This document shows, in pieces, positions 1-50,576 of a stretch of DNA of 64,000 nt. The position numbers and the translations under genes were made by a program. The stretch is from Candidatus Multivoradales bacterium (GTDB lineage Bacteria > Acidobacteriota > Thermoanaerobaculia > Multivoradales > JAHEKO01). The number at the start of each line of letters is the position of its first letter. The stretch's first letter is position 1. The notes under the pieces were generated by a model, which had not been told where the DNA came from, did not search any database, and saw only the letters and a list, made by a program, of their open reading frames with translations. Where the stretch lies: the NCBI GenBank assembly GCA_965223155.1, contig CBDCVR010000015.1:576001-640000 (forward strand), given 5' to 3'.

Positions 1-680
1 CTTCCTTCGCCCTGGTACTCGTGGCCAGCGCGGCCTGGGCCAAGCCTTCGGTCGGCGTCGCCGAGTTCCGCAACAAGACCCGCGCCGGGTGGTGGTACTC
101 GGGTGTGGGTTGGGATCTCGCCGACACTCTGACCAACGAACTCGCGGCCACGGGCTCGTTTACGGTAGTCGAGCGCGCCAAGCTCGAGCCCGTCCTGCGC
201 GAGCAGGATCTGGCGGACTACGGCCGGGTTCGCCCCGGAACCGGCGCTGCCATTGGCAAGCTCACCGGAGCCAAGTACCTGATCCTGGGCAGCCTTTCGG
301 CCTATGAGGAGAACGTCAAGGGAGGCCGCGGCGGCGTCGGCTACCGCGGCATTCGGCTCGGCGGCAAGAAGAACGAGGCCTATCTGGCGGTGGACCTTCG
401 GGTTGTCGACACGACCAGCGGTGAGATCGCCTTTACCCGCACGGTCGAAGCGCGCACCGGCGGCCGCGGCTTCAGCGTCGGCGTCTTCCGCGGCGGTTTC
501 GCGGGCAACCTGGGCAAGCACGAGAAGACTCCGGCGGGTAAAGCTATCCGCGCGGTGCTGGCCGAGGCGACCGACTACCTGGACTGCGTCATGGTGCGCC
601 AGGACTCGTGCACGGCCGAGTTCGACGCCAAGGAGCGCAAGCGGCGGGCGGGTCTCAAGGATTCGATCAAGCTCGACTGA
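1..680 (+). CDS. CsgG/HfaB-family exported protein (5' end outside window)
   Basis: ORF 21..680 stays open to the window edge (SFALVLVASAAWA, signal-peptide-like). F-x-VVER..L..EQ and GKLTGAKYLILGSLS / VDLRVVDTTSGEI patterns are typical of the CsgG fold. Confidence 0.75.
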   Translation, partial: SFALVLVASAAWAKPSVGVAEFRNKTRAGWWYSGVGWDLADTLTNELAATGSFTVVERAKLEPVLREQDLADYGRVRPGTGAAIGKLTGAKYLILGSLSAYEENVKGGRGGVGYRGIRLGGKKNEAYLAVDLRVVDTTSGEIAFTRTVEARTGGRGFSVGVFRGGFAGNLGKHEKTPAGKAIRAVLAEATDYLDCVMVRQDSCTAEFDAKERKRRAGLKDSIKLD

Positions 681-765
681 GCGCTTCGCAGCTTCCATGC
701 CCCAGGGGCGGCCGTAGCCGCGGCCGCCTCCGGTTTGCCTCGTCCCTCGGTGAGAGGCCGTTCTG

Positions 766-1578
766 GTGATCGTCAGCCGGCACGGCTCGGGGCTCGTCCT
801 CGTCACGCAGCCGGATCACGCGGCGCTTGCCGGCGCCCTGATGGCTCTGTGGCGCGCCGATGGCATGCCCGACCATCCCCGAAGGGACGACCTCGTCTTC
901 GCGGCCCGGGAGCACGACAATGGCTGGCAGGAGATCGACGCGGCGCCGCTCTTCGACCCTGCGAGCGGGCGGCCGACCTCCTTCGACCAAGTCCCGGAGG
1001 CCACCCGCCGCGAGCTCTGGGCCCGTGGCGTTCGCCGGTACGCCACGGAGCGCCCTTACGCCATGCGGCTCATTTGCCACCACGCGCGGGATATCTACCA
1101 GCGGCACCGCGAAGACCCTGCTTGGAGCGAGTTCTTCGCCGATCTCGAGACCTTCGAAGCCGAGCTACCGGATCCGGCGCGAGCCCCCGAGGCGGTGGCG
1201 GCTGACGCCTTGCTGCTGCGGACCGTGGATTCCCTGAGTCTGGCCGCCTGCGGTCACCGCGGCGGCTCGGGCGGCCGGCTCAGGGTGGTCGGCGGCGCGG
1301 GCGGCGACCACCAGGACGACCGAGGCGACCGGAAGCGAGGGGAACTCGCCGCTCGGATCCAGGATGACGCGGTGTGGCTGGACCCCTTTCCGCTGGCGGG
1401 CTCGACGACTCTCGAGGTCGCCTGCCGGCTCCTGCCGAAGCGGCACTACGCCTCGGCCAGGAGCTTCCGGGAAGCGCTCCTCGAAGCACCCTGGATTCGG
1501 CGTGCGATTCGCTGGCGCCGGCTCGTTTCCCCCTCCGCGCTGCCCGCGGAGCCACCAGATCGGCCTCCGATGCCGTGA
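766..1578 (+). CDS. DUF3891 family protein
   Basis: QPDHAALAG..W and HDNGW motifs characteristic of DUF3891. Confidence 0.7.
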   Translation: MIVSRHGSGLVLVTQPDHAALAGALMALWRADGMPDHPRRDDLVFAAREHDNGWQEIDAAPLFDPASGRPTSFDQVPEATRRELWARGVRRYATERPYAMRLICHHARDIYQRHREDPAWSEFFADLETFEAELPDPARAPEAVAADALLLRTVDSLSLAACGHRGGSGGRLRVVGGAGGDHQDDRGDRKRGELAARIQDDAVWLDPFPLAGSTTLEVACRLLPKRHYASARSFREALLEAPWIRRAIRWRRLVSPSALPAEPPDRPPMP

Positions 1579-1592
1579 TACCCTAGGGTCGA

Positions 1593-2147
1593 ATGTCCGC
1601 GCAAGATCGAGTAGAAGAAACCGCGCCCGAGCCGGAAGAGATCGCTCAGCGCGTCCTCGTTCCCTCCCCGATCGGGGTCATCGGCATCGAGTTGACGGGC
1701 GAAAATCTGACGAAAGTCGTGATCATTCCGCGCGGCAAGGAGCGCAAGTCCTTCGTGCCCTTCGGCGAGCTCAAGCGAGCCGACCGTTCGGAGTTCCTGG
1801 ACGAGGCCGTGGGCAGGTTTTCCGAGTACCTGGCGGGTGCGCGCAAGGGCATCGGCCTGGACTGGGACCTGGGGCCGTCGGGGGTCACCGGATTCCCCAA
1901 GCGCGTCTTGAAGGAGACCGCCAGAATTCCGTACGGCCGCACCCGGAGCTACCAACAGATCGCCGCGGCGGCGGGCAACGGCGGCGCCTACCGGCAGGTC
2001 CTCGCCGTACTCCAGGAGAATCCGATTCCGCTGGCCATCCCCTGCCACCGGGTCGTGACGGTCAAGTCGGGACCGGGAAGCTATGTCGCCGGCCCCAAAA
2101 AAAAGCTCTGGCTCCAGCGCCTGGAGCAGCGCGGCCTCACGGTCTAG
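1593..2147 (+). CDS. ogt: methylated-DNA--protein-cysteine S-methyltransferase
   Basis: IPYGRTRSY and NPIPLAIPCHRV active-site motif. Confidence 0.9.
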   Translation: MSAQDRVEETAPEPEEIAQRVLVPSPIGVIGIELTGENLTKVVIIPRGKERKSFVPFGELKRADRSEFLDEAVGRFSEYLAGARKGIGLDWDLGPSGVTGFPKRVLKETARIPYGRTRSYQQIAAAAGNGGAYRQVLAVLQENPIPLAIPCHRVVTVKSGPGSYVAGPKKKLWLQRLEQRGLTV

Positions 2148-2191
2148 ACACGGTCTAGACCGATCCGCTTGCCAGGTCTGAACGGCTCGGG

Positions 2192-3256
2192 CTAGCTCGC
2201 CTCCAGCGCCACCTCGACGCTGGCTTCCTCCCCGGCTTCGAGCCAGATCGTGCGCTCGACCGAATCGAATCCGGGGCGCACGACCTCGAGGACGTGCTCG
2301 CCAGGGCTGATGCTCAGCGGCGACCGCAGGCGCGAGAGCTCCCGGCCGGTTCCCAGGAAGCGGCCGTCCAGGTACACCGAAGCATCGAGCGGCTCGACCC
2401 GGAGCTCGACGCGAGCGGGTACCAACCGTTCGGCAAGCGGCTCCCGGTCATCCGGGTCACCACGCTCCCGGACCCGGATGTCCTCTTGATCGCGCTCATC
2501 ACGCTCATCACGCTCACGCGACCGGCTCCTGGCCACCAGCTCCTCCTGGTCGAAGACCGTCAGCTCCTCGGCCGGCACCGTCTCGCCCGGCACCAAGTCG
2601 AGCTCGACGTCGATCACCAGCCCGGCAAGCACGTTGATCTCCCGGCGCACGGTCTCGAAGCCCTGCCGCAAGAAGATCAGCTCGTGCCGGCCCTTTTCGA
2701 GCCAGAGGTGGCCGGGAAATCCGTCGAACTTGCCGGCCGTGCCAATGTACTGCCCATCTACCCAGACCTCGGTCTTCTTGGGTCGGACGTTCAGATCGAG
2801 GCCGCCGAATTCCTCATAGCCCCGCGACGGATAGTGCGAGTAGTAGATCGGGTACCAGTGGAAGTACGGGTTGTAGTAATAGCCCCCGTAGTAGCCGCCC
2901 CACACCCAGCCGAAGCCGCCATGGCGTCGGCGATGCCGATCACTGTCGGTCCTCGAGCGATCCCGGGAGCGCCGGGACCGGGTGACACTCGCGCCGCCAC
3001 GGCTGCCGCCCTGGCGGGTCGTGACCGTGCCGGAGCGGCCGGCGGTCGCGCCCCGGGCGGTTCCGTTGGGCGTGCGCGGCGCGGAAGCCGTCGTGCCCGA
3101 AGTCATCGGCCCGCCGCCGCGCGCGGCGGGAGTGCGGGTCTTGGGCGCATCCCCGGCAGCGCCGGCTGGCATCAGCAAGGCGGTCGCGCCGGCCAGAAGG
3201 CCCGCCATCACGGTTCGTTGTAGAAGACGTTTCGATCGATTGCAGACAGCTCTCAT
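2192..3256 (-). CDS. exported PEGA-domain protein
   Basis: Signal peptide, low-complexity G/R/T and Tyr-rich linker, two PEGA repeats (V-x-P..VWVDGQYIG; VEPLDASVYLDGRFLG). ATG at 3256 preceded by GGAGGAG. Confidence 0.8.
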   Translation of the reverse strand: MRAVCNRSKRLLQRTVMAGLLAGATALLMPAGAAGDAPKTRTPAARGGGPMTSGTTASAPRTPNGTARGATAGRSGTVTTRQGGSRGGASVTRSRRSRDRSRTDSDRHRRRHGGFGWVWGGYYGGYYYNPYFHWYPIYYSHYPSRGYEEFGGLDLNVRPKKTEVWVDGQYIGTAGKFDGFPGHLWLEKGRHELIFLRQGFETVRREINVLAGLVIDVELDLVPGETVPAEELTVFDQEELVARSRSRERDERDERDQEDIRVRERGDPDDREPLAERLVPARVELRVEPLDASVYLDGRFLGTGRELSRLRSPLSISPGEHVLEVVRPGFDSVERTIWLEAGEEASVEVALEAS

Positions 3257-3317
3257 TGGTTCTCCTCCGGCCTCCTCCGGCATTCTCCAGACACCGGGCC
3301 GTTACCTCTACCGAAAT

Positions 3318-3333
3318 TGCAAGGTCCAGACCA
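3318..3333 (-). promoter_or_regulatory. candidate sigma54 (-24/-12) promoter of the PEGA gene
   Basis: Minus strand TGGTCTGGACCTTGCA has GG-N10-GC spacing with TTGCA, about 60 nt upstream of the start. Lacks the CAC of the full consensus. Confidence 0.4.
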
Positions 3334-3410
3334 CCGGACACAGGCCCGGTCCGATACCTCGGCTGGCCGTCAGAACGGCCTGCTGAGGCCTCGGTGGCCG
3401 TCCACCGTCC

Positions 3411-4436
3411 TCAAACCGAGGCACCCGCCGTCCTGCTCTCGGGCTGCCGGTCCGTTTCGACTGTGACCGGCTGGGCGGTCGGCCTGGCCTCGAGCACGGT
3501 TCCCAGCTCGGCAAGGGCATCCCGCACCGCCGGTGTCGCGGCACCGGGCGAGAGGACGGCGACACAACCGCCACCGCCCGCGCCGCAAGCCTTGCCCCCC
3601 CAGGCACCAGCCCGGCGGGCGGCTTCGAGCATCGTTTCGATGCCGGGAGTCGCGATCCCCTCGGCCAGGCCTCGCCGCAGCTCCCACTCCCGTCCCATGA
3701 GCTCACCCACCGCCGGCAGATCGGACTCGCGAAGCGCCTGGGCCAGATCGGAGGCCACGCGCGCGAGGCCCTCAAAGCGCCGCACGATCTCGGGCTCGGC
3801 GCTCAAGCGGCCGCGGACCACGCTCCAGTTCTTGCCGGCCGAAAAGTGGCTCTTGCCCGTATAGGCAACCGTCAAACACGCGCCGAGAGCCTCCAGGTCC
3901 ACCGCCAGCCGTTCCACCCGCTCGCCTCCGATCTCGTGATGGATCGCCAGCGCGCCCCCGTACAGCGGCGGGAAGTGGTCCTGCCGACCGGTCGGCAGGC
4001 TCATGAGCCGGGCTTCGACATCGCGCGCGATCGCGCTGCGGGCGTCCGGACCCCGAACGTGCCCTCCGGCGGCCTCTTCAGCCGCGGCCAAGAACGCGAT
4101 GGCCAGAGACGAACTCGCGCCCAGCCCGCCGCCCCGGGGCGACTGGCTCGTGACATCGACACGCGCGGATGCCAGTTCGGTCTGCCGGACGAGATGACCG
4201 AAAAGGGCGGTCTCATTGTGCTCCAGCCACTCATCACTGGTCTCGACCGGAAAGCGTCCGCCGTCTTGCCGCAGCTCGAATCCGGACTCTCGGGAACGAA
4301 TCGTCACCGTGACCATCACCTCGATAGCCACGTTGACCGTGACCGCTCCCTCATGGAGCAAGCCCAGGGGCCAGATGTCGAGGGTCCCGCCGGCCAAGTC
4401 CACCCGGCAGGGAGCCCGCGCGGTGACGAGACTCAT
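3411..4436 (-). CDS. GHMP-family sugar kinase (HddA-like)
   Basis: RAPCRVDLAGG, PRGGGLGASSS (GHMP P-loop), GRQD and GKACGAGGGG motifs. Confidence 0.8.
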   Translation of the reverse strand: MSLVTARAPCRVDLAGGTLDIWPLGLLHEGAVTVNVAIEVMVTVTIRSRESGFELRQDGGRFPVETSDEWLEHNETALFGHLVRQTELASARVDVTSQSPRGGGLGASSSLAIAFLAAAEEAAGGHVRGPDARSAIARDVEARLMSLPTGRQDHFPPLYGGALAIHHEIGGERVERLAVDLEALGACLTVAYTGKSHFSAGKNWSVVRGRLSAEPEIVRRFEGLARVASDLAQALRESDLPAVGELMGREWELRRGLAEGIATPGIETMLEAARRAGAWGGKACGAGGGGCVAVLSPGAATPAVRDALAELGTVLEARPTAQPVTVETDRQPESRTAGASV

Positions 4437-47374: not shown

Positions 47375-50293
47375 CTAGAAGCGGCGCCCGACCCAGATCG
47401 AGGACTCGAAACCGTCGTCCGAGTCCTTGAAGTCCCAGCGCTTGGCGAAGTCCACGTTGACGTCGACCCCGAGGAAGCGCACCGTGAAACCGTAGCCGTA
47501 GCTCGACACCGCGTCCACCAGTCGATCCTCGTCGTCGGCAAACCGAAACGTCTGGAACTCGTCGAACCAGGCGCCGCCGATATCAAGGAACAGGATCGCC
47601 CGCACGCCGCCAAAGCGCACGATCGGCGTCGAGAGCTGGTCGAAGAACGGGAAGCGCAGCTCGAGGTTGGTGTAGAAGCCGTGGGTGCCCACGATCGAAC
47701 GGAAGTCGAACCCGCGCACCGTGTCCAGGCCGCCGAAATAGACCGGGCTGGGCGTGTTGCCATCGGTGGCAATGCCCACCGCCCGAAAGGCCAGATTCGA
47801 GCGCTTGGTCAGGGGCAGGTACTGGCGGAAGTCGAGGGAGGCCCGCTCCACCAGCGTGCCGCTGTCGTCCAGATCCGGCGCCCACAGGTAGCCGAGGTTC
47901 CAGCGCCGGCCCCCGACCGTGCCCCAGGGGCTCAGGACCGAGGTGTCACCGACCACCGAGGTCGAGATCAACGGAAAATCGTCGTCCACGGTGTCGATCG
48001 TGAGGAACCGATTGCCCTCTTCATCGACCCGCAGCACTTGCGCCAGGAACTCACGCATGACGTAGCCAGCGCCGATCTGGAAGCGGTGGGACACGTTCCA
48101 CGGGTAGACCACCGAGCCGATGACCCCGGTCTGGCTGAAAGCGGTGCGCCCACGCCGAAACAGACCCGAGCTCTCATCGACCGCGATGAAGAAGTCCCGA
48201 TCGTCGAAGAGGTGAACCTGCCACTGCCAGCGGTTGGAAAGATTCGAATAGATGACGTCGAAGTTCTGGAAGCTCTCGACCGACTGGAAGACTCCCAGGA
48301 TGCGGCGGTCGCCCATGAAGTCGGACATCTGGATGTAGGTCGTGCCCACGAAGGTCTGGTCGTCCGAGACTCCGACCGTGCCGCCCACGTCCTCGACGAA
48401 GAACCTGCGGCCGCCGAACTTGTCCTTGTTGCGCTCGTCGATCGCCACCTCGATGGCCGGCTCGAAGGACTCGAAGTTGGCGACGTCGACCGGCCCGGCC
48501 TCGAGGTCCTGGGTCGCCACTACCGGCAGCGGATCGGTCACCGGATCCTCCGGATCCAGAAGGTAGAGGTCGTGCCGGCCGCGCCAGAAGGCGGCAAAGA
48601 CCAGGCGCTCCTTGCCGTCTTCACCGGCCAGCACGGTGGGCTGGTAGCAGCCGGTCACGGCGTTGGTGTGCTGGCGCAGCTCCCCGGTGGCGAGCTCCAG
48701 GCTATAGATGTTGTTGACGCCGCCGCGATCCGAGGTGAAGTAGATGCGCTCGCCGCTGGGCGAATAGGTGGCGTCGGTCTCATTCGACTCGCCGTCGGTC
48801 AGGGGATAGCGAACGCCCGGGTTGTCGAGCTGGATCCGGAAGAGCTTGGCGTGGTCGCCCAGGACCGAGGTCACGACGATCGACTTGCCGTCGGGGGCAT
48901 AGGCAGGAGCCGCGTCGAAGATCTCGTCGTCCGTGATCTTGGCGACCGCCCCGCTCTCGACGTCGACTTGCCAGATGTCGAACTGGCCGTTGCGGTGCCC
49001 GCCGAAGGCGACGTGGCGGCCGTCCGGGCTCCAGGCCGGGGCGATCTGCTGATCGACCTCCATGGGAAGGACCTTGTCGATCTTGCCGCGCAGAACGTCC
49101 AGAAGCACCAGACTCCGGCCCTTCTGGCGGCGGGCGAAAAAGGCGACCCGGTCGCCCGAGGGTGAGAAGGCCAGATCCCGGCCCATCTTGCGCCCCATGG
49201 TCAGCTCCTGGGCGATGAAGTACTGGAACTCGGCGTCGTCGAAGCCCTTGGTCAGGTTGCGGATGACCTCGCGCTGGCGGGTGTCGTAGAGGACGATGTC
49301 CACCTGAGCCGAATTGGGACTGGAGAAGGCCGAGCCGTCGGTCGAGAACGCCACCAGAAGATCGCCCGAGGGCGACGCCACCGGCGAGGTCTGAACGCTC
49401 CGGGGGCCGGTTCCCTGGCGGAAGCGGCGGCCGAAGTCCCCCGGCTCGCCGGTCGAGATGAGCTCCGGCAGGTACTTCTTTCGCAGCCAGCGCCGGAAGT
49501 CGCCGTCGAAGTCCTCGGCGTCGATCGCGAAGGTGCGCTCGATCGCGCGCCCGACCCGGCCGCCCAGGGTGTTGCGGGTCTCGATGATGAAGTCACGCAC
49601 CCCTTCCTTGCCCCAGCGCTCTTCGATGAACTGGAAGACCGCCGAGCCGAACCGGTAGGCGAAAAAGCCGCCGAAGTCCGAAGTGACCGGGGGAATGTTG
49701 TCGTTGACCACGGCGTCGCGCAGATACATCTGCTCGCGCGCGCCCTCGTCGTGGGCCATGTAGCTGGCCAGTCCTTCCATGAACCAGGTCGGCGGCGACG
49801 AGGTCACTCCCTTGCTCAGGTTGGCCCCGAAGATCATGTGGTACTCGAAGATGTGGGTGAGCTCGTGCAGCAAGAGCTCGTAGAGCTCGGGACCCGGCAA
49901 GTCGATGGGTAGCACCATCCGGTTCCGAACCGGGCTGGCGAAGGCGCCGATCCCCTCGGGGATGAAGTTCAGGATGATGTTGGTCTGCTCGAAATCGGCG
50001 TGGGTCTCGTAGATGATGAGCGGCGTCGGCTCTTCGATCCTGTAGTTGAAGGCCTGCGAAAGCTCGTCGTAGGCGCTCTCGGCGTAGGAAACGATCTTGC
50101 CGAGCAGGTGCTCCTCGGAATCGTAGTAGTACACGTCGAAATGGGGGGCGTGGTAGATCTTCCAGTCGAAGTCCTCGTACCGGATCTTGTTCTTCCCGAA
50201 CTGGGCGCTCGCCGAGCCGGCCACGAGTACCGCCAGAACGACGGCGAGTCCGCGGGCGACAAGAGTCCTAGGGGCTTGCTGAAAAGCTCTCAT
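47375..50293 (-). CDS. Omp85/BamA-family outer membrane protein with N-terminal gluzincin-like peptidase domain and PD40 beta-propeller
   Basis: Signal peptide ending ASA-Q; HELTH..WFMEGLA; repeated PAWSPDG/YAPDG/YSPSG PD40 units; GG..VRGF and terminal Phe of Omp85 barrels. The nearest in-frame ATG (50293) lies inside the MITE terminal repeat. Confidence 0.85.
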   Translation of the reverse strand: MRAFQQAPRTLVARGLAVVLAVLVAGSASAQFGKNKIRYEDFDWKIYHAPHFDVYYYDSEEHLLGKIVSYAESAYDELSQAFNYRIEEPTPLIIYETHADFEQTNIILNFIPEGIGAFASPVRNRMVLPIDLPGPELYELLLHELTHIFEYHMIFGANLSKGVTSSPPTWFMEGLASYMAHDEGAREQMYLRDAVVNDNIPPVTSDFGGFFAYRFGSAVFQFIEERWGKEGVRDFIIETRNTLGGRVGRAIERTFAIDAEDFDGDFRRWLRKKYLPELISTGEPGDFGRRFRQGTGPRSVQTSPVASPSGDLLVAFSTDGSAFSSPNSAQVDIVLYDTRQREVIRNLTKGFDDAEFQYFIAQELTMGRKMGRDLAFSPSGDRVAFFARRQKGRSLVLLDVLRGKIDKVLPMEVDQQIAPAWSPDGRHVAFGGHRNGQFDIWQVDVESGAVAKITDDEIFDAAPAYAPDGKSIVVTSVLGDHAKLFRIQLDNPGVRYPLTDGESNETDATYSPSGERIYFTSDRGGVNNIYSLELATGELRQHTNAVTGCYQPTVLAGEDGKERLVFAAFWRGRHDLYLLDPEDPVTDPLPVVATQDLEAGPVDVANFESFEPAIEVAIDERNKDKFGGRRFFVEDVGGTVGVSDDQTFVGTTYIQMSDFMGDRRILGVFQSVESFQNFDVIYSNLSNRWQWQVHLFDDRDFFIAVDESSGLFRRGRTAFSQTGVIGSVVYPWNVSHRFQIGAGYVMREFLAQVLRVDEEGNRFLTIDTVDDDFPLISTSVVGDTSVLSPWGTVGGRRWNLGYLWAPDLDDSGTLVERASLDFRQYLPLTKRSNLAFRAVGIATDGNTPSPVYFGGLDTVRGFDFRSIVGTHGFYTNLELRFPFFDQLSTPIVRFGGVRAILFLDIGGAWFDEFQTFRFADDEDRLVDAVSSYGYGFTVRFLGVDVNVDFAKRWDFKDSDDGFESSIWVGRRF

Positions 50294-50546
50294 GGGTTGC
50301 GTTGCAAGCGCCGTGGCTGTCGCGGGCAGGCGGCGCGACGCAGGCCATGCTGTAGCTTCGTTGAGAAGCGCCAATGCCCCTGCGGCGGCCACGCCGCCGC
50401 AACCCGAAGGGCGGCAAGGGGTTGCGGCGCATCTTCGGCGTTGCTCGTCGTCAACGATGACACCGCATCGATTCCTTCTCGCGTCTGGAAGCTGCACCGT
50501 AAACCCTTGCCGCGCAACCTATGAAAGTTTTTCAGCAAGCCCCTAG
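50268..50546. mobile_element. miniature inverted-repeat transposable element (MITE)
   Basis: 34-bp terminal inverted repeats (50268-50301, 50513-50546; 31/34 identical), CTAG at both ends, internal long hairpin (about 50413-50512), no transposase; excision restores a continuous ORF. Confidence 0.85.
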
Positions 50547-50576
50547 ACAAACAACGCGACACGCGGCACCCCATTT

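Follow-up and report, generated by a model that had tools for sequence, protein, structure and literature searches.

The window analysed here is a stretch of 64,000 nt from the genome of a Candidatus Multivoradales bacterium (contig CBDCVR010000015.1, positions 576,001 to 640,000). Within it, a minus-strand gene encoding a peptidase-like, PD40 beta-propeller and Omp85 protein carries a transposable element of the miniature, inverted-repeat kind (MITE) at its 5' end. The insertion has parted the gene from its start codon and put it out of frame; the remaining 972 codons are intact. That the element is an IS5-derived MITE, and that it went in behind codon 6 of the signal-peptide region, is almost certain. 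At one end of the element stands an ATG (50293) in the reading frame of the gene, and this ATG overlaps the stop codon at which the frame running on from the old start closes. To judge from these sequence features, the probability that the gene is kept alive by a coupled restart at this ATG is about one half. Coordinates are collected in Table 1 and, unless a contig or locus is named, are those of the window.

The interrupted gene and its ancestral start

Pfam matches to the interrupted gene are PD40 (2.8e-19), Omp85 (1.7e-06) and ShlB, with a weak match to Peptidase_MA_2 below the cut-off. The C-terminal Omp85-superfamily barrel is matched by PF01103 at 28.3 bits (cut-off 24) and by PF03865 at 24.3 bits (cut-off 22.7). 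The gene is present as a single copy in this genome, and with its N-terminal 299 residues as query it is matched in 40 of the 41 genomes searched across the order, a set that includes an unpublished genome (G005); the only genome without a match is 61% complete. The operon gene just upstream has no Pfam match; in relatives its conserved C-terminus, with LFTN before the stop codon, immediately precedes the orthologs.

The 19 best orthologous junctions were inspected, and all display the same arrangement: the LFTN-ending gene, a short spacer, and a strong ribosome-binding site (-7.5 to -12.8 kcal/mol) followed by a GTG or TTG start that lies 28-42 codons ahead of a conserved FGKNK motif. None of the 19 has the repeat motif or an insertion within 400 nt. 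Ribosome-binding scores here and below are duplex energies against the anti-Shine-Dalgarno tail; the tail sequence was not taken from this genome, since a pattern search of the assembly did not locate the 3' end of the 16S gene. Four of the genomes are congeners, and these carry GAGGAGAGCGG immediately ahead of a GTG start, with GAGGAG in the place where the old ribosome-binding site of this genome reads GGGGTG. Two of them (G003 and G004) open with GTG TCG CG(T), the same nine bases as at 50562, and the other two with GTG TTG CG. Because two congeners open with these bases and all four have a ribosome-binding site just upstream, the ancestral start is GTG 50562. An earlier reading of the locus, made from the sequence alone (hereafter the sequence-only reading), had named ATG 50574 and GTG 50562 as candidates; the congeners favour the GTG, while the ATG lies inside the old ribosome-binding site, has a score of its own of +1.5 kcal/mol, and can be discarded.

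When the 275 inserted nucleotides are excised in silico, the resulting junction is colinear with all four congeners, the orthologs being too diverged to display the empty CTAG itself. In the ancestral frame the target CTAG is read as TCT AGG, codons 6 and 7, with MSRCLS before the point of insertion and RTLVARG after it. The earlier placing of the MITE in a signal peptide, of which it interrupts the n-region, is supported both by the 19 junctions lacking an insertion and by the colinearity of the excised sequence.

The inserted element

The sequence-only reading had described a 279-bp element with CTAG at both ends, and this description holds; the 34-bp repeats it gave are the better-matching outer part of 41-nt arms (50268-50308 and 50506-50546), which are 88% complementary and lie 197 nt apart. 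The repeats belong to the kind designated class 1, which opens with CTAGGGGCTTGCTGAA. The insertion of 275 nt leaves a remainder of two when divided by three, in agreement with the earlier statement that it is not a multiple of three, and the mirrored outward ATG of the right repeat is where it had been placed, at 50521 on the plus strand. No transposase gene is present in the 279 bp, and the 94-aa frame of the element has no Pfam match. No known RNA family reaches its gathering score in the element (best 23 bits, threshold 49.4), and no sigma-70-like site that could act as an outward promoter was found on either strand between 50150 and 51500. The predicted folding of the element is very stable, at -167.7 kcal/mol (z = -10.15, 200 shuffles), with -155.5 kcal/mol for the other strand (z = -9.05); ATG 50293 is paired in the terminal stem of the -155.5 kcal/mol hairpin.

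Both junctions of the element are spanned without differences by contigs from four public runs (three samples, one study), so the insertion is not an assembly artefact of one data set. An empty site had been sought as a check on the insertion. As an orthologous site it is seen in all 19 relatives, but no empty allele appears in the contigs of the four runs, all of which carry the insertion and show no joint skipping the element; contigs, it should be said, drop rare variants, and the site may therefore be heterogeneous. The sole joint present in them runs from 50402 to 50514, and its loose ends correspond to the flank of a further copy of the element, at C15:811626. The end of that copy is also identical to the right repeat over 33 nt. 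Mismatches between the two repeats were considered as a means of dating the insertion, and this was rejected: since the right-repeat variant occurs unchanged in another copy, the mismatches represent subfamily variants, not decay.

About 12 related stretches occur in the genome itself, and they are of two kinds. Class-2 repeats open with CTAGCAGCCCGTGGTGGAAGTC, and elements of class 1 and class 2 share a homologous core of about 225 bp. Outside the window, this core is found with CTAGCAGCCCGTGGTGGAAGTC ends at C14:850226-850503, C15:1245625-1245904 and C15:426363-426594, giving one core with two kinds of end. With the 279-bp element as query, copies of the family are found in 22 of 61 related genomes, including full-length class-1 copies in two other genera at 80% and 77% identity. 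The 16-nt end motif, allowing at most one mismatch, occurs 93 times in 16 of the 45 genomes of the taxonomic family, against one occurrence of the reversed control. The count of copies suggested with the sequence-only reading therefore shows that the element is not a single copy, and two further marks of a MITE, multiple copies at unrelated sites and filled versus empty sites, are seen in the copies of this genome and in the orthologous site that is empty in 19 of 19 relatives.

An alignment of the element (window 50268-50546) with five copies from four genera preserves a three-way fold of the core. Of 104 predicted pairs, 34 have both sides changed in at least one sequence with pairing kept, including pairs in an internal arm outside the terminal repeats; the six sequences are not independent. 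Copies in other genera are 77-80% identical, compared with 64-76% for the host protein, a pattern that fits either horizontal spread or a constraint on the element.

The mobiliser of the family

The sequence-only reading had held that neither the target-site duplication (CTAG or TA) nor the mobilising insertion sequence (IS) could be fixed from the window. Both can now be named from relatives, where the search for a cognate transposase that it proposed yielded IS copies with matching ends: in G051, in G043 (eight near-identical ends) and in G015. These are 1.17-1.32 kb long and open with GAGCTTGCTGAAAAAC directly after CTAG; CTAG lies outside all seven of the listed ends. Their transposases match DUF772 (1.6e-26 and 3.3e-27) and DDE_Tnp_1 (5.3e-08 and 1.5e-09). 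IS5 is known to duplicate a 4-bp target with the consensus YTAR, of which CTAG is the commonest (PMC5493358, in the part available), so that the relatives' copies have both the transposase and the YTAR-type duplication of the IS5 family. Since the IS copies with matching ends have CTAG flanks and a DUF772/DDE_Tnp_1 transposase, the duplication is CTAG and the mobiliser is of the IS5 type. What the IS and the MITE have in common is limited to about the outer 22 nt, and the MITE core is unrelated to the subterminal sequence of the IS.

In this genome, which is 98.66% complete, a protein query and a search for the DUF772 family both failed to find the cognate transposase. A resident IS5-family IS of about 802 bp is present as five identical copies (C13:132061, C13:354038, C13:884600, C13:1025592 and C15:879920), flanked by (C)TAG, and encodes the sole DDE_Tnp_1 transposase found in the genome. 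It is probably not the mobiliser, its ends (GGGCCTGTTAACAC) resembling those of the MITE only loosely. An IS630/Tc1-type mobiliser, which would duplicate the TA within CTAG, was likewise rejected: the genome has no DDE_3 match, and the matching IS copies of relatives are of the IS5 type.

One of the relatives' IS copies occurs in a larger unit (L091, on contig C38 of G051, 312-3567). The IS5-type IS (312-1493) is followed there by a phosphotransferase gene of the APH family and a 2OG-Fe dioxygenase gene, after which stands a second copy of the right end that differs by one base in the outer 16 nt. The unit measures 3.26 kb overall, has the repeats and CTAG at its bounds, and may be a passenger-carrying transposon.

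Candidate starts and the predicted product

In the interval from 50620 to 50200, TGA 50292-50290 is the only codon that closes the old-start frame; the frame of the gene has stops at 50545 and 50521, and the third frame has four. As the sequence-only reading had noted, the open reading frame (ORF) 50290..50574 crosses the whole element, and ATG 50293, in frame with the gene, overlaps its terminal TGA 50292-50290 as ATGA. Four in-frame starts follow the last stop in the frame of the gene: GTG 50497, GTG 50392, TTG 50374 and ATG 50293. The arrangement has two features of translational coupling: the stop/start overlap itself (ATGA at 50293-50290), and an upstream frame with an initiation signal of its own (-6.0 kcal/mol) ahead of a downstream start that has none (-1.7 kcal/mol). 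No Pfam match was obtained for the product of the 90-codon frame, and no such protein is in the public collection. Public annotation places the start at ATG 50293, giving a 972-aa protein; this is the choice of a gene caller, not evidence, and such use of the repeat ATG as a start hides the insertion.

Judged by eye, the N-terminus rebuilt from ATG 50293 has a basic n-region, with two arginines in the repeat-encoded part, then a hydrophobic core and an A-x-A motif. Orthologous signal peptides likewise close with A-x-A followed by Q-F/Y, and the distance from ATG 50293 to the FGKNK motif is 31 codons, compared with 28-42 in the orthologs.

Table 1. Features at the site of insertion, with the ribosome-binding scores of the candidate starts.
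Feature	Position	Strand	Remarks
Peptidase-like / PD40 beta-propeller / Omp85 gene	47375..50293	-	972 codons, no internal stop
Predicted rebuilt signal peptide, 30 residues	50204..50293	-	Nine repeat-encoded residues, native hydrophobic core, site between ASA and Q; by eye
MITE, class 1	50268..50546		279 bp with both CTAG copies counted; 275 bp added net
Left terminal inverted repeat	50268..50308		Downstream repeat in the mRNA; bears the outward ATG
CTAG, target-site duplication, copy one	50268..50271		Read from the sequence
Old-start frame through the whole element	50290..50562	-	90 codons and stop TGA 50292-50290; 94 aa if from ATG 50574
ATG in the downstream repeat	50291..50293	-	In frame with the gene; overlaps TGA as ATGA
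Alternative GTG in the element	50495..50497	-	In frame; adds 68 residues before the signal peptide; -4.3 kcal/mol
Right terminal inverted repeat	50506..50546		Mirrored outward ATG at 50521, plus strand
CTAG, target-site duplication, copy two	50543..50546		Ancestral reading xCT-AGx = TCT AGG
Ancestral start GTG	50560..50562	-	From congener openings and upstream ribosome-binding site; now starts the 90-codon frame
Ribosome-binding site of the old start, GGGGTG	50567..50572	-	-6.0 kcal/mol, best among the candidate starts here
Upstream operon gene, 258 aa	50577..51353	-	Stop TAG 50579-50577; 14 nt before the old start
Duplex energy, GTG 50562 (displaced native start)			-6.0 kcal/mol
Duplex energy, GTG 50497			-4.3 kcal/mol
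Duplex energy, GTG 50392			-3.2 kcal/mol
Duplex energy, TTG 50374			-3.1 kcal/mol
Duplex energy, ATG 50293			-1.7 kcal/mol; no ribosome-binding site

A proposed restart by translational coupling and its rivals

In the proposed course of events, the original ribosome-binding site and GTG 50562 would still take up ribosomes, which may be passed on by the upstream gene that ends 14 nt earlier. These ribosomes would translate the 90-codon frame across the element, melting the long hairpin formed by its two repeats, and would terminate at TGA 50292-50290. Part of them would then begin anew at ATG 50293, which overlaps this stop and lacks a ribosome-binding site. The product would have nine repeat-encoded residues, two of them arginines, ahead of the native core and the cleavage site between ASA and Q. 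In the orthologs the signal peptide always closes with A-x-A in front of Q-F/Y, so that cleavage here would leave an unchanged mature protein; this would be why the position tolerates such an insertion.

Several points weigh against this account. Restart without a ribosome-binding site is usually inefficient. A stretch of 82 open codons before the ATGA has, at 63% G+C and by a base-composition estimate, a chance of about 0.1, so that the ATGA geometry may be a matter of luck. The old ribosome-binding site, at -6.0 kcal/mol, is weaker than those of all 19 orthologs (-7.5 to -12.8 kcal/mol), which could be decay after loss of function or a difference of the lineage, and fits both. Moreover, the insertion being undatable, an intact ORF and a normal ratio of non-synonymous to synonymous substitution rates (dN/dS) are equally expected of a very recent null allele. 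Such an allele is the chief competitor to the coupled restart: the insertion would have inactivated the gene, the in-frame ATG and the ATGA would be coincidental, and the gene would be dispensable where the organism lives or grows. The splitting of the native start from the gene body and the shift of frame speak for it, as do the weak old ribosome-binding site and the position of ATG 50293, with no ribosome-binding site and within a very stable stem. Nor is there an empty-site allele in the run contigs, or a close strain in metagenomes, by which the event could be dated (the best metagenomic relative of the N-terminal 299 aa is 74% identical, too distant to stand in for an allele). With no cognate transposase found in the genome, the element could not be removed by excision. 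However, the 972 codons have neither a stop nor a frameshift, the gene is kept in 40 of the 41 genomes of the order that were searched and has no second copy here, and the insertion struck the only position at which a substitute start would spare the mature protein. Selection on the gene gives a similar indication. Its dN/dS is 0.22-0.25 in pairs with this genome, compared with 0.10-0.17 among the four congeners (746 codons), and the upstream control gene shifts in the same way, from 0.05-0.09 to 0.11-0.15 (215 codons); since it does, the shift belongs to the lineage, with no relaxation particular to this gene. The test is a blunt one, with dS at 0.9-1.4 and near saturation, which also counts against leaning on it in favour of a working gene. 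A null allele is accordingly a tenable but not a probable account of the locus.

Two further accounts also keep the gene in use, and differ in where translation begins. Initiation at ATG 50293 might be independent of upstream translation, by a standby mechanism or another that needs no ribosome-binding site, after breathing of the hairpin or a cut by an RNase. The public annotation calls this start, and the signal peptide would be of normal length, with 31 codons to FGKNK; however, a score of -1.7 kcal/mol, compared with strong sites at all 19 orthologous starts, and the pairing of the ATG in the terminal stem of the predicted fold make independent initiation improbable. Initiation at GTG 50497, within the element, would give the longest ORF (1040 aa) and has AAGG 11 nt upstream (-4.3 kcal/mol). 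It would also place a 68-residue extension ahead of the hydrophobic core, which would then lie near residue 78, far from the N-terminus and unlike any of the 19 orthologs. This GTG sits within the hairpin and is traversed by ribosomes reading the old-start frame, and no such protein is in the public collection; its use as the start is very unlikely.

If the coupled restart at ATG 50293 works, the locus is a natural case of a transposon insertion that removed a start and was repaired by the transposon's own end, and the displaced start would serve again, together with its ribosome-binding site, as a ramp on which ribosomes load. Since the foreign residues leave with the signal peptide, the mature protein would not be altered, and the case would show how the ends of mobile elements can rewire translation starts in operons. 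If the restart fails, the locus amounts to a fresh knockout of the ordinary sort, in a gene for an outer-membrane protein that is conserved yet dispensable.

Comparison with known systems

Repeat ends that supply a start codon are already known from MITEAba12 of Acinetobacter baumannii, which likewise derives from an IS, is non-autonomous and has start codons at its termini; in some copies the outward repeat nucleotides provide the first four residues, MQQS, of the neighbouring coding sequence (PMC6382973). It differs in being 113 bp long, with a weak fold and an origin in another IS lineage, and IS5 is mentioned nowhere in the paper. The part of it available describes no insertion into a signal peptide and no stop/start overlap with the frame of a displaced start (PMC6382973). 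The REP2 repeat of Neisseria is similar as a dispersed repeat that gives a translation start fused to downstream ORFs, but according to the accessible text it brings its own promoter and ribosome-binding site and lies upstream of genes (PMC3184786). The element described here brings only an ATG, and would rely on ribosomes from the displaced native start. In Rickettsia, palindromic mobile repeats are tolerated within coding regions and in-frame MITE fusions are common; as far as the available portion goes, these are read through in frame as internal peptides (PMC10969869), whereas here the frame is shifted and the gene must restart. The IS5 of Escherichia coli and its family, as described in the accessible part of the source, share the DDE transposase and the CTAG duplication with the CTAG-flanked IS copies of 1.17-1.32 kb in the relatives (PMC5493358). 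The MITE differs from these IS5-type copies in that only about the outer 22 nt are common to both, and its core also occurs with a second kind of repeat.

Coupling of operon genes at overlapping stop and start codons, as in trpB-trpA, is textbook knowledge. The present case resembles it in the ATGA, and in a downstream start that has no ribosome-binding site of its own and is buried in a structure that the upstream ribosome would open. It differs in that the overlap was made by transposition and the upstream frame is an accidental 90-codon read through the element. A search of full texts, supplements excluded, brought up no MITE that lies within a signal peptide and has a repeat ATG overlapping the stop at which the displaced start's frame ends. 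With start-supplying repeat ends known from MITEAba12, the new part would appear to be the signal-peptide site together with the stop/start overlap with the displaced frame.

ATG-bearing ends in other copies

The sequence-only reading had gone on to suggest that the family acts as a portable restart cassette. The class-1 ends of 60 fetched loci and of this genome, 93 in all, do not bear this out as a property of the family. An outward ATG at the canonical place is present in 10 of them, six in this genome and four in G046, G043 and G061, and the family consensus at that place reads ...CCCTCGTGGG, without a start codon. Among 12 full copies in relatives the net length is 0, 1 and 2 mod 3 in three, five and four cases respectively; with lengths spread in this way, the ATGA hand-over is particular to the present copy. 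The in-frame ATG is thus a property of the repeat variant in this genome, and the ATGA geometry is a coincidence of copy length, with no designed cassette.

One of the 10 ATG-bearing ends lies at a contig end. Ahead of six others are short frames (17-86 codons); judged by third-position G+C and open frames, four of the six point at the 3' end of a gene reading inward and two are ambiguous. The other three stand directly at the 5' end of a gene reading outward, and in all three the ATG is in frame. They belong to the interrupted gene, to an EamA gene of the same genome, and to an NTP_transf_5 gene of G046. The EamA case involves a 161-bp class-1 copy (C14:501375-501535; L003 1501-1661) lying on the upstream stop codon and on EamA codons 2-3. 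The start of the EamA ortholog in the congener G001 overlaps the upstream stop as GTGACTAG, and in G003 there is a shorter overlap, GTGAGTAG; the ancestral GTG position, as given by GTGACTAG in G001, reads GGG in this genome. In the NTP_transf_5 case (L133 1184-1328) the old GTG stands just beyond the element in the same frame, and one TAA occurs 6 codons before the repeat ATG. CTAG is a natural part of stop/start overlaps of the form GTGNCTAG, as seen in the EamA ortholog of G001 and in the NTP_transf_5 gene of G046 itself (the NTP_transf_5 ortholog in G022 has the shorter overlap GTGTAGTGG), and for this reason the element may tend to land on gene starts.

An enrichment of in-frame use of the ATG at gene 5' ends had been put forward as a check on the proposal. 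It is answered in part: all three such ends are in frame, but ATG-bearing ends are rare and three cases are weak evidence. A coding CTAG can be read only as CTA-G or xCT-AGx, each with a prior of about 1/2, so that three in-frame cases of three would arise by chance with a probability of about 1/8. In each of the two parallel cases another start also lies just downstream of the element, a GTG at a distance of 10 nt in the EamA case and a TTG in the NTP_transf_5 case, and translation there could begin without the repeat ATG. These points weaken what the parallel cases lend to a restart at ATG 50293, and the three in-frame cases are suggestive and no more. It is conceivable, if rather unlikely, that there exists a sublineage with ATGA in both repeats, in which (with CTAG read xCT-AGx) the repeat ATG serves as a replacement start, the displaced native start feeds it with ribosomes, and decapitating insertions become survivable. 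Were this true, the variant repeat would be an adaptation or exaptation through which insertions are tolerated at a wider range of sites.

Solo units of the repeat, 25-26 nt long and with CTAG or CTAA at their bounds, are found in this genome (C15:17952-17977) and at loci L107, L137, L144, L146 and L147, and are possibly excision footprints or abortive insertions. The one at L137, in G046, stands in frame at the 5' end of an ORF, giving the N-terminus ...ALQQAPKARKAVIPAAG, and is in the same frame as the three other 5'-end cases.

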